Below, piece by piece: positions 3,888 to 7,341 of a stretch of DNA of 30,494 nucleotides. Source of the DNA: a bacterium (GTDB lineage Bacteria; Patescibacteriota; Minisyncoccia; UBA6257; 2-01-FULL-56-20); contig JAKABL010000001.1 in NCBI GenBank assembly GCA_021801885.1, positions 1 through 30,494 on the forward strand, read 5' to 3'. Both the position numbers and the translations under genes were made by a program. The stretch's first letter is position 1. Every line of letters starts with the position of its first letter. Under the pieces are notes generated by a model. That model was not told where the DNA came from and did no database searches. It worked only from the letters and a program-made list of their open reading frames with translations.

Positions 3888-3951
3888 CTGTGTACCGGAC
3901 AATGTAAAGTATTGCCGCTATACTAAAACTGGGCGGCAAGCAAAAAATCCC

Positions 3952-5018
<1,067 letters not shown>

Positions 5019-5205: not shown

Positions 5206-5320
5206 TACTGGGCACAGCGGAATCCGATGTTGTTGTTCGTGTTGCCGGGAGTATTGTTCAGGTTGAGTGTCTCCACCCCCGCATTCGCGCCATTGTTCCA
5301 ATTGCCGCCGCGGATGAAAC
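5206..5320 (-). repeat. DGR template repeat (TR)
   Basis: 115-bp copy of 5804-5918 with 13 mismatches, all at TR adenines on the sense strand; rich in AAC/AAT codons; lies between avd and RT. Confidence 0.97.
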
Positions 5321-5380: not shown

Positions 5381-5731
5381 TCACGCCGCGTTCGGCTGGG
5401 GAAATCGCGCCATCCATCCCGCGAGCATCCGGCCGATCTCGTTCATGCGCTCCGCCGCGAAGCCGTATTGCCGCACACTCATGAACCGGAGGTCTTTCGC
5501 GAGGCGGACAAGCATGCGGAGTTCGTCGAGATCCGCGCTCGCGGCGGCGAGTAGGGTATGTTTCTCCCGCGCGGCGTTCGCGACGATGAACGCGTGGATG
5601 AGGTCGATGGTCTTATTCTCAATGCGCTGGCCGAGCACGAACCGCTGGCTCTTGGGGAATTTGTTCACGACGGGATGCAACCACAGCATGAAGTCGTAGG
5701 TCTTTTGGTAGATGGCAAGGTCGTCCAGCAT
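5381..5731 (-). CDS. avd: DGR accessory variability determinant (Avd-like four-helix bundle)
   Basis: 116 aa, LAIYQKTYDFMLWL...KFPKSQRFVLGQRIEN...LDELRMLVRLAKDL...EIGRMLAGW; sits directly upstream of TR. Confidence 0.92.
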   Translation of the reverse strand: MLDDLAIYQKTYDFMLWLHPVVNKFPKSQRFVLGQRIENKTIDLIHAFIVANAAREKHTLLAAASADLDELRMLVRLAKDLRFMSVRQYGFAAERMNEIGRMLAGWMARFPQPNAA

Positions 5732-5802: not shown

Positions 5803-7326
5803 CTACCGGGCACAGCGGAATCCGACGCTGTTGTTCGTGCCGCCGGGAGTAAGGCTCAGGTTGAGTGTCTCCACCCCCGCATTCGCGCCATTGCCCCAAC
5901 CGCCGCCGCGGAGGAAACCATAGACGGTGGTATTGCCCGAGGTGCCGTCGGAATATATTTCGCCCATGCCTTGTGTAGAGCTCCATGCGTTGTTGAGAGG
6001 CCCCGCGGTCTGCTGAGTCATCGTGCCCCAGTTCGTGATCGCGGTATATTGGCGCCAGGTGAAGCCCGGGCTGCCGCCATACGGCTCGTTCTGTCCCTGG
6101 ATCGTGTCGCTCGTCCACTGCCAGAGGTTGCCCGCCATGTCCCAGACGATGCTGCCGTTCGAGAGCGTGAGGGTGCGGATCTGGGAATTCGCCGATCCCG
6201 TGCCGCCGCAGGAGGAAGGGCCGTCGGTGCCCACGCAGTTCTGGGAATCGCTTGTGGAAGGGAGGCTTGCGTTTGCGGGAATGTTGTCGTTGTGTCCCGA
6301 ATACACATAGTTCGTACCCACCGTGCCGCCGTACCAGTTTGATCCCTGCCCCTCCGCGTTCCAGGCGATGGTCTGCCACTCCGCGTTCGTCATGAGATGG
6401 GCGCCGATCGAAGCGCAGTAGCTCGCGGCCTGGGTCTGGGACACGTCCACGATGGGATAGCCGGTGGCGATCGAGGCGGGGGCATAGCCGTTCGCTTGGG
6501 AACAGTTGTTCGTATTCACACCCGCGCCCCCATTGTTGTAACCGTTCACGGCGGTGCCATCCAAAGGAGAGGTGAGGCCCACACCCGTCGTGCGGTTCAC
6601 GCATGACGCGTCGTACTTCATCACCATGAAATTGCCGGTACCGAAGGTGCTGTTGCCGGGGACGGGCACCCAGGCGCCCGTGAGGTTGGCGGCGGAGCCG
6701 ACCGTGAAGGCGAGAGGATTCTGCACGAGCATCGCCTGATATTTCTGGGATTCGGGGACGGCCGTGACGCGGAAGGTGGTGCCGAAGGATTCGTAGGTGT
6801 AGTAAAAGTTGCTTGAGGTGGAATTCACGGGATCGACGGGGAGGGAGCCGAAGGGGCTTCCAGCGCTAATGCTATTGAAATTGATCGGCAGCCAGCCGGT
6901 GGTCGAAGCGTTGCGATAGGTGCTTGATGCGGCGCAGTGGAAAGATCCGCCTGCGAGGAAATTGCCGCTCATAAGGGAGCAGTCCGTGCCTGCGGTCGAG
7001 GTGGCATTCGGATCGGGAATGGAAACGTAGGTGACGGATGAGGTGCCGAGGGAGAAATTGGAAGCGCCCCCTTGGTCAGTGGTATACAAATTGATCGCCG
7101 AGTTCAGGGTGGCAAGGTCGGAGAGGCGGTTCGCATCCCTCGATTGGGCGAGAAGCTGGGCGGGATTGAGGGTCAAGACGACGACCACCGCCAAAATGGC
7201 GATGATCGCGATCACGACGAGAAGCTCGATGAGGGTGAAGCCCTTATCGAGCATGGCCGCAGGTGGAATTACTCTCTCTCTCTCTCTCTCGGAGCGATTA
7301 TTCCGAACAAAAGCTGGGTTGCCCAT
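5803..7326 (-). CDS. DGR target: type IV pilin-like N-terminus fused to a C-terminal C-type-lectin (FGE-sulfatase-like) variable domain; alternative start at 7254
   Basis: Class III signal KG|FTLIELLVVIAIIAIL...; CLec/FGE motifs HLMTNAEWQ, WDMAGNLWQWT and RGGGW...GFRC; VR at the C-terminus. Confidence 0.9.
   Translation of the reverse strand: MGNPAFVRNNRSERERERVIPPAAMLDKGFTLIELLVVIAIIAILAVVVVLTLNPAQLLAQSRDANRLSDLATLNSAINLYTTDQGGASNFSLGTSSVTYVSIPDPNATSTAGTDCSLMSGNFLAGGSFHCAASSTYRNASTTGWLPINFNSISAGSPFGSLPVDPVNSTSSNFYYTYESFGTTFRVTAVPESQKYQAMLVQNPLAFTVGSAANLTGAWVPVPGNSTFGTGNFMVMKYDASCVNRTTGVGLTSPLDGTAVNGYNNGGAGVNTNNCSQANGYAPASIATGYPIVDVSQTQAASYCASIGAHLMTNAEWQTIAWNAEGQGSNWYGGTVGTNYVYSGHNDNIPANASLPSTSDSQNCVGTDGPSSCGGTGSANSQIRTLTLSNGSIVWDMAGNLWQWTSDTIQGQNEPYGGSPGFTWRQYTAITNWGTMTQQTAGPLNNAWSSTQGMGEIYSDGTSGNTTVYGFLRGGGWGNGANAGVETLNLSLTPGGTNNSVGFRCAR
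5804..5918 (-). repeat. DGR variable repeat (VR) at the 3' end of the target gene
   Basis: Encodes FLRGGGWGNGANAGVETLNLSLTPGGTNNSVGFRCAR, differing from TR only at adenine positions. Confidence 0.97.
7272..7290. repeat. (GA)9G microsatellite in the leader of the DGR target gene
   Basis: ctctctctctctctctctc at 7272-7290, between ATG 7326 and the pilin cleavage site; currently in frame. Confidence 0.95.
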
Positions 7327-7332
7327 AGGAAT

Positions 7333-7341
7333 ATCATACCA
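7333..7341 (-). promoter_or_regulatory. Extended -10 promoter for the pilin-avd-TR-RT transcript
   Basis: TGGTATGAT, 6 nt upstream of ATG 7326. Confidence 0.55.

Follow-up and report, generated by a model that had tools for sequence, protein, structure and literature searches.

A GA dinucleotide tract in the leader of a pilin-like target gene as a candidate second switch of a diversity-generating retroelement in a Patescibacteriota bacterium

Organization of the retroelement locus

Diversity-generating retroelements (DGRs) of bacteria of the candidate phyla radiation (CPR) diversify pilin-like or C-type-lectin-fold surface proteins. DGRs are usually regarded as targeted mutators that are always on, and how a cell stops mutating, or hides a good or a dangerous variant, is an open question. 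Here we analyzed a DGR of a very small, uncultured bacterium, encoded on a stretch of 30,494 nucleotides (nt) from contig JAKABL010000001.1 of assembly GCA_021801885.1, hereafter the window. The leader of its target gene contains a perfect (GA)9 tract, which most likely acts as a heritable and reversible on/off, or high/low, switch for display of the encoded adhesin. A (GA)21 tract in the reverse transcriptase (RT) gene lies further downstream on the same strand. The target gene, the accessory gene, the template repeat (TR) and the RT gene form one DGR operon on the minus strand, with the variable repeat (VR) at the 3' end of the target gene. The features of the operon are as follows.

5803-7326, minus strand: DGR target gene, with a pilin-like N-terminus and a C-terminal FGE-sulfatase/C-type-lectin-fold domain (Pfam)
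about 5806-5918, minus strand: VR, at the 3' end of the target gene (TR/VR comparison)
5381-5731, minus strand: bAvd accessory gene (Pfam bAvd, E 4e-28)
5206-5320, minus strand: TR; every mismatch to the VR falls on a TR adenine
3952-5015, minus strand: DGR RT gene, split into two frames by (GA)21 at 4586-4627; RVT_1 is found in two pieces
3942-3960, minus strand: hairpin TCCCC-GTA-GGGGA with a T run behind it at the RT stop codon, resembling a terminator, seen by direct reading and missed by a consensus scan

The locus thus combines an RT, an accessory protein and a TR/VR pair with adenine-specific differences, and the hairpin at the RT stop codon likely marks the end of the operon. The target is type IV prepilin-like, as it carries an N_methyl motif, and a Peptidase_A24 (PilD) gene was detected at 47.5 bits, which is over the cut-off. 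Upstream of the target gene lies a C5 DNA methyltransferase gene on the minus strand, whose stop codon TAG is at 7370-7368. The 5' region of the target gene itself, listed in the direction of transcription, is composed of the following elements.

7333-7341, minus strand: extended -10 element TGGTATGAT, made up of TG (7341-7340) and the hexamer TATGAT (7338-7333), by sequence reading
7324-7326, minus strand: ATG that opens a 507-codon open reading frame (ORF), proposed as the 5'-terminal start codon of a leaderless mRNA
7291-7323, minus strand: pre-tract leader of eleven codons, translated as GNPAFVRNNRS
7272-7290, minus strand: (GA)9G dinucleotide tract; at its present length it is in frame (ON) and reads ERERER
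7269-7271, minus strand: TAA immediately 3' of the tract, the stop of the frame with one additional unit
7252-7254, minus strand: internal ATG four codons upstream of the cleavage site (MLDKG/F, the slash marking cleavage); publicly annotated start and possible re-initiation site if the tract is out of frame
7244-7246, minus strand: TAA closing the frame with one unit less, 5 nt past ATG 7254
7237-7242, minus strand: GGC TTC, prepilin peptidase cleavage and methylation site G/FTLIELL (Pfam N_methyl, E 1.9e-7)

The TATGAT hexamer is preceded by TGG and starts exactly at position -12 relative to ATG 7326, leaving a spacer of 6 nt (attcct). Tandem Repeats Finder describes (GA)9G as a repeat of period 2 with 9.5 copies and a match of 100%. 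Six codons (VIPPAA) lie between the tract and ATG 7254, and LDK lies between ATG 7254 and the cleavage site. ATG 7326, the tract, ATG 7254 and the cleavage motif line up in a single open frame of 507 codons, which ends at 5803. A first-pass annotation of the window had described this layout, and reading of the sequence bears it out. It had also claimed that gain or loss of one unit truncates the protein if translation starts at 7326; the calculated products of such frames are indeed only 19 or 26 residues long.

Start codon of the target gene

Whether the tract is translated depends on the start codon that is used, 7326 or 7254. The 3' end of the 16S rRNA is GGATCAATTAAAC, not GGATCACCTCCTTA, and lacks CCTCC (G000 contig C68, L130:1440-1600, minus strand); it therefore contains no anti-Shine-Dalgarno sequence. 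In a genome-wide analysis, no enrichment of Shine-Dalgarno (SD)-like sequences was observed at any position upstream of ORF starts. The motif TANNNT, on the other hand, showed a peak exactly at -12 of ORF starts, with 66 occurrences in comparison to a background of about 12 in a crude ORF set. In a cleaner set of non-overlapping genes, it was found at -12 in 36 cases versus about 6, and T at -15 and G at -14 were enriched as well. The complete pattern TGnTAnnnT-N6-ATG occurs 47 times genome-wide, and 83% of these sites open ORFs of at least 100 amino acids (aa). At 70% of the 47 sites, the ATG is also the first one in such an ORF, in comparison to 7% for ATGs overall. With a spacer of N9 or N3, the motif is found 12 and 5 times, respectively. 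This pattern is the signature of leaderless mRNAs, whose -10 element is situated about 6-7 nt upstream of the start codon, and it suggests that SD-led initiation has been given up in this genome for leaderless starts.

By sequence geometry, ATG 7326 matches the leaderless arrangement to the base, whereas ATG 7254 does not, as it has neither a -10 element at -12 nor an SD sequence. An SD-driven start at 7254 was rejected on account of the missing SD sequence at this site, the missing genome-wide SD signal and the missing anti-SD sequence in the 16S rRNA. We also rejected a second promoter, TGGGCA-17-AATAAT (7325-7297), which would start transcription at the tract; it is weak, with 9 of 12 matches and 0.4 such sites expected by chance, and it is degraded further in the closest ortholog, L001, where its -10 hexamer reads AACAAT. 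In relatives, TGnTAnnnT was found at -12 or -13 of an ATG in 15 5' regions of pilin or DGR target genes, and in 15 out of 15 cases this ATG is in frame with the pilin motif. The leaderless promoter geometry, the lost anti-SD sequence and the same architecture in the pilin genes of relatives support the start at 7326 that had been proposed at first pass. This start is strongly favoured, and it would place the tract within the translated sequence. The target mRNA is probably leaderless with its 5' end at or beside ATG 7326, and the public annotation probably misses the true start of the gene.

Rarity of GA tracts

The occurrence of GA tracts is far above chance expectation. Within the window, 22 GA 12-mers were observed in comparison to 0.2 in dinucleotide-preserving shuffles, and the perfect (GA)9.5 repeat is longer than chance allows, as is typical of a contingency locus. 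In the whole genome of 651,810 bases, there are only two GA/CT tracts of at least 5 units, namely the (GA)9 tract in the leader and the (GA)21 tract at 4586-4627. Both belong to the same strand and DGR operon, with 2.6 kb between them, and a genome-wide scan revealed almost no other long simple sequence repeats. Tracts of at least 8 GA units were found in 13 of 61 sampled genomes of the same family, in 12 of which a tract is inside or adjoining a DGR RT or Avd gene. A domain search of the 97%-complete genome did not find MutS_V or MutL domains. As no MutS or MutL is detectable, dinucleotide tracts should be unstable in this organism. An assembly artefact was ruled out as the source of the tracts, since independent assemblies, produced by different studies, contain them at homologous sites.

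Comparison with the closest ortholog

The closest ortholog found, at locus L001, shares 90% aa identity and belongs to a different species of the same genus. At the same site it carries (GA)15 in place of (GA)9, which is 12 nt longer and still in frame. The flanks of the tract are 94% identical between L001 and the window, so that the repeat number differs (9 versus 15 units) while the flanking sequence is conserved, as expected for a contingency locus. Invariance of the tract would have spoken against the switch suggested in the first-pass annotation, and examination across relatives showed that the tract varies. L001 retains TGGTATGAT, the ATG and its spacing as well as the downstream sequence, with a single substitution between the methylase stop and the ATG. 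The pre-tract leader differs by 5 substitutions in 36 nt, including two synonymous ones, V to I and N to A. A homolog at 97% identity is P0002.

Leader tracts in more distant homologs

In-frame and out-of-frame tracts were also found in the leaders of more distant homologs.

L033: (TC)7, with an ATG six bases past TATAAT and a 58-codon leader; in frame
L122: (GA)6; in frame
P0017: ...QIERERERESS...; in frame, protein sequence only
P0081: ...LSLSLSLSLS...; in frame, protein sequence only
L024: (GA)15; out of frame
L013: (GA)8; out of frame
G185 (L131:1501-1528), an ordinary pilin gene from a distant family of the same class: (GA)14; out of frame

Natural alleles in both frame states thus exist, with the window, L001, L033, L122, P0017 and P0081 in the ON state and L024, L013 and G185 in the OFF state. 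In the out-of-frame alleles, about 450-480 codons of intact ORF remain downstream. The only ATG in L024 is located six bases past TATAAT, upstream of the tract, and is out of frame with the pilin motif, and the product as called (P0014) begins inside the transmembrane helix. No ATG, GTG or TTG in the pilin frame precedes the pilin motif in L024, L013 or G185. L024, L013, L122 and G185 have no fallback start codon downstream of the tract, unlike the window. The G185 pilin gene consists of an ATG, 10 codons, (GA)14 and G-TAA, and the frame of the ATG ends at that TAA; it resembles an OFF allele.

The leader of L024 matches that of the in-frame protein P0017 on both sides of the tract (MLFSLHRQI versus MRFSFHKQI before it, SSTPRIRTLARQA versus SSVPRIGVQARRA after it). 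As the mature proteins of the L024 type and P0017 are only 66% identical, a translated leader has retained the tract while these lineages diverged widely. Four assemblies contain the L024-type target (P0014, P0123, P0124 and P0125). These proteins share 97-100% identity, with all differences falling within the last ~32 residues, i.e., the VR, and all four are called from an internal GTG because there is no in-frame ATG. Since the assemblies differ only in the VR, it follows that target and RT were both active recently in the L024 lineage, for which the consensus is now OFF/OFF.

Two observations concern further homologs. A DGR target at L030:3577-3685 has a 36-codon leader from a leaderless-type ATG, in which ...SISVSIS... 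is encoded by an interrupted TC-rich run, possibly a decayed tract. In addition, the called products of about 10 of 120 homologs begin within the N-terminal helix (P0022-P0024, P0026, P0036, P0037, P0080, P0115 and P0117 among them); these may represent further out-of-frame leader alleles.

The partner tract in the reverse transcriptase gene

All RTs that are at least ~65% identical to the window RT contain a GA tract in the same loop, between RT motifs 2 and 3, whereas more distant RTs have no GA tract in this loop. Carriers of the RT tract are the window, L001, L002, L024, L030, L033, L057, L060, L064, L066 and L069, with tract lengths from 12 to 24 units. The states of five RT genes are listed below.

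Window RT: 21 units; out of frame, minus one unit restores 353 aa
L002 RT: 20 units; out of frame, plus one unit restores the frame
L024 RT: 12 units; out of frame, minus one unit restores the frame
L033 RT: 12 units; intact, 339 aa
L001 RT: interrupted tract, with an in-frame TAG inside the tract from a G to T change

Four loci carry both tracts. Their target/RT states are ON/OFF in the window, ON/broken in L001, OFF/OFF in L024 and ON/ON in L033, and these combinations are what two independent switches would be predicted to give. The first-pass annotation had postulated combinatorial states of display and diversification, with the window currently in the state display ON and diversify OFF. 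The window indeed has its leader tract in frame and its RT tract out of frame, and the four loci between them provide the different combinations.

The two tracts of the operon are alike in repeat unit, strand and presumed slippage, in their varying lengths and in the occurrence of both frame states among relatives. They differ in that the RT tract sits in an internal loop of the enzyme and is present in every examined RT of the clade, whereas the target gene carries its less common tract in a leader that is disposable. Display of the product would be controlled by the leader tract and mutagenesis by the RT tract; the former would thereby provide the DGR with a second, independent switch.

Other arrangements of repeats in DGRs were seen as well. 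In L059/L095, L065/L097 and L067/L096, a (GA/TC)13-14 tract lies between divergently oriented Avd and RT genes, and L058 and L068/L098 carry (GA)8-14 elsewhere in a more divergent RT, past residue ~47 of its C-terminal part. DGRs may have come under repeat control on more than one occasion.

A proposed switch of adhesin display

We propose the following course of events, in which the site of transcription start, the rate of slippage, reversibility and phenotype are inferred. In a cell that has no detectable mismatch repair, slipped-strand mispairing during replication would lead to gain or loss of GA units in the leader tract. With 9 units, or with 6, 12 or 15, ribosomes would read from the 5' AUG through to the pilin, and the adhesin would be made and could be displayed. 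With one unit more or less, a stop codon would be reached after 19 or 26 codons, and expression would be lost or strongly reduced. Cleavage of the leader at G/F by prepilin peptidase would render an in-frame (ER)n insert of any length harmless. As a prepilin peptidase gene is present, the 29-residue leader would be removed like a leader of 5 residues. Together with the (GA)21 tract of the RT, the leader tract would constitute two independent, heritable and reversible switches, one for adhesin display and one for diversification. We assign a probability of roughly two thirds (about 0.68) to the reading in which the tract is translated and adhesin display is switched, or strongly modulated, by it.

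Several observations weigh against this reading. With 10 units, the shifted frame runs into TAA 7271-7269, directly behind the tract and 12 nt ahead of ATG 7254; with 8 units, it ends at TAA 7246-7244, 5 nt after this ATG. Because both stops adjoin ATG 7254, the OFF state may be leaky here, i.e., low rather than off, and termination followed by re-initiation at ATG 7254 could keep up some expression of a short-leader form (MLDKG/F). A leader tract is also uncommon. A strict pattern matched 2 of 401 genomes of the class, the only further case being G185, and most loci with an RT tract have no leader tract. The comparison with a close ortholog comprises a single locus, L001. Furthermore, ATG 7254 is the choice of the public annotation, with a product of 483 aa (P0122) compared to 507 aa from 7326, and yields a textbook short prepilin leader. 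Finally, 237 of the 290 genes in the cleaner set start with neither an SD nor a leaderless signature, which makes internal initiation at 7254 mechanistically possible.

The most probable alternative is translation from the annotated ATG 7254. The tract would then be located in the 5' untranslated region or in a short upstream ORF, and its length would have little or a modulating effect, resembling a rheostat that works by termination and re-initiation at the upstream ORF without an ON/OFF state. The leader MLDKG/F would be typical in length, as homologs have leaders of 3-15 residues, and the position of both shifted-frame stops beside ATG 7254 fits such coupling. In G023, two secreted paralogs of 872 aa likewise have an upstream ATG, tract, GTAA and second ATG, in this order, ahead of their signal peptide. 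Yet the only strong promoter-like element is positioned for 7326 and conserved in L001, while ATG 7254 has no -10 element at -12 and the alternative promoter is weak. Window and L001 both hold the upstream ATG in frame despite a difference of 6 units. In the four relatives without a start codon downstream of the tract, the tract must be translated. We regard this alternative as unlikely.

The two starts may also act in concert. In this tentative and rather doubtful extension of the switch, the tract, the conserved G-TAA behind it and the downstream ATG would form a three-state translational control on a leaderless mRNA. An in-frame tract would give the long-leader prepilin at a high level. One unit more would place a stop 12 nt before ATG 7254 and allow re-initiation at a low level, and with one unit less ribosomes would overrun ATG 7254 and expression would be off. 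The RNA around the tract or ATG 7254 folds no better than shuffled sequences (z = -0.5).

The tract could also be a neutral microsatellite without any regulatory role, of chance origin or seeded from the neighbouring RT tract and tolerated in a leader that is cleaved off. An (ER)n stretch in a cleaved cytoplasmic leader should do no harm, leader tracts are rare among DGR targets, and a genome without mismatch repair is expected to accumulate repeats. Such accumulation is not seen elsewhere in this genome, however, which has no third GA tract and almost no long simple sequence repeats although mismatch repair is lacking. Perfect tracts recur at the same leader position across lineages that are only 51-66% identical, the tracts of the family concentrate in DGR genes and at the 5' ends of genes for secreted proteins and pilins, and out-of-frame alleles retain intact downstream ORFs of at least 450 codons. 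A neutral tract appears highly improbable.

Least probable is a tract of fairly stable DNA length that causes transcriptional slippage or ribosomal frameshifting and so yields a fixed in-frame fraction whatever the genomic state: out-of-frame consensus states are common (4 of 5 RT genes are out of frame or broken) and the VRs of all four out-of-frame L024-type target assemblies nonetheless differ, but lengths vary among relatives (9 versus 15 units in the leader, 12 to 24 in the RTs), no stimulatory structure is evident from the fold z-score, and the slippage sites known to us are homopolymer runs, not GA repeats.

Relation to known phase-variable systems

In Neisseria, opa genes contain CTCTT repeats in the region coding for the signal peptide and pilC contains a poly-G run in its signal-peptide region, both of which mediate translational phase variation. 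The target gene of the window is similar in that a perfect short repeat is predicted to lie in the cleaved N-terminal leader region of a surface adhesin or pilus gene, that gain or loss of a unit would shift the frame, and that in-frame and out-of-frame natural alleles exist while the rest of the ORF is intact. By this analogy, the proposed mechanism is classic translational phase variation by a leader-coding repeat in a surface-protein gene. Unlike opa and pilC, the repeat unit here is a GA dinucleotide, replaced by TC in some relatives, the mRNA is apparently leaderless in an organism without an SD system, and the host is an ultra-small CPR/Paceibacteria-type bacterium without MutS and MutL. 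The switched gene is, moreover, itself a hypervariable DGR target, and a downstream ATG beside both shifted-frame stops may make the OFF state leaky. The context is new, as a GA dinucleotide, a leaderless mRNA, a CPR-type genome without SD initiation or mismatch repair and a DGR target with a separately switched RT come together.

In Haemophilus influenzae, TA repeats between the -35 and -10 elements of hif act as a promoter-spacer switch. Similar to hif, a dinucleotide repeat is proposed here to control pilus expression in a heritable and reversible manner. Unlike hif, the tract follows both the -10 element and the start codon and would consequently act on the reading frame, not on promoter spacing. 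In its composition, the operon resembles the DGRs known from CPR bacteria, with RT, bAvd, TR and a VR at the 3' end of a C-type-lectin/FGE-fold domain and with adenine-specific differences between TR and VR. In the titles and abstracts that were covered, an incomplete part of the literature, we found no paper that deals with phase variation in CPR bacteria or with repeats that switch a DGR component.

In this operon, both halves of the DGR, the mutator RT and the displayed target, carry a candidate repeat switch of their own. If the proposed function is true, this would add a second layer of stochastic heritable control over hypermutation, in organisms whose pili are thought to mediate attachment to host cells. 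A three-state leader in combination with the RT switch would even amount to a heritable circuit to diversify, fix or hide a host-attachment adhesin in a CPR bacterium that lacks mismatch repair and SD initiation. The tracts are some of the first candidate contingency loci in CPR bacteria.

GA tracts at other secreted-protein genes

A G-TAA or G-TAG follows directly 3' of the tract in most examples (L122, L090, L092, L094, L024 and G185), and the arrangement of upstream ATG, tract, GTAA and second ATG may be a design, not an accident. The two paralogous genes for 872-aa secreted proteins in G023 (L090:2472-2489 and L092:2456-2475) contain an upstream ATG, (GA)9-10, GTAACACC and the ATG of a canonical signal peptide, all in frame. 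Their two-ATG layout is that of the window, yet they lie outside any DGR. In G084 (L094:3029-3052), a gene for a small membrane or secreted protein reads MINEQSF-(RE)n-SKVVAILLISAVLIM; its (GA)12 tract lies downstream of the start codon and ahead of the transmembrane segment. In G023, two further tracts of this kind, (GA/TC)10-12 (L091:2512-2531 and L093:2587-2610), are situated within G/A-rich sequence.

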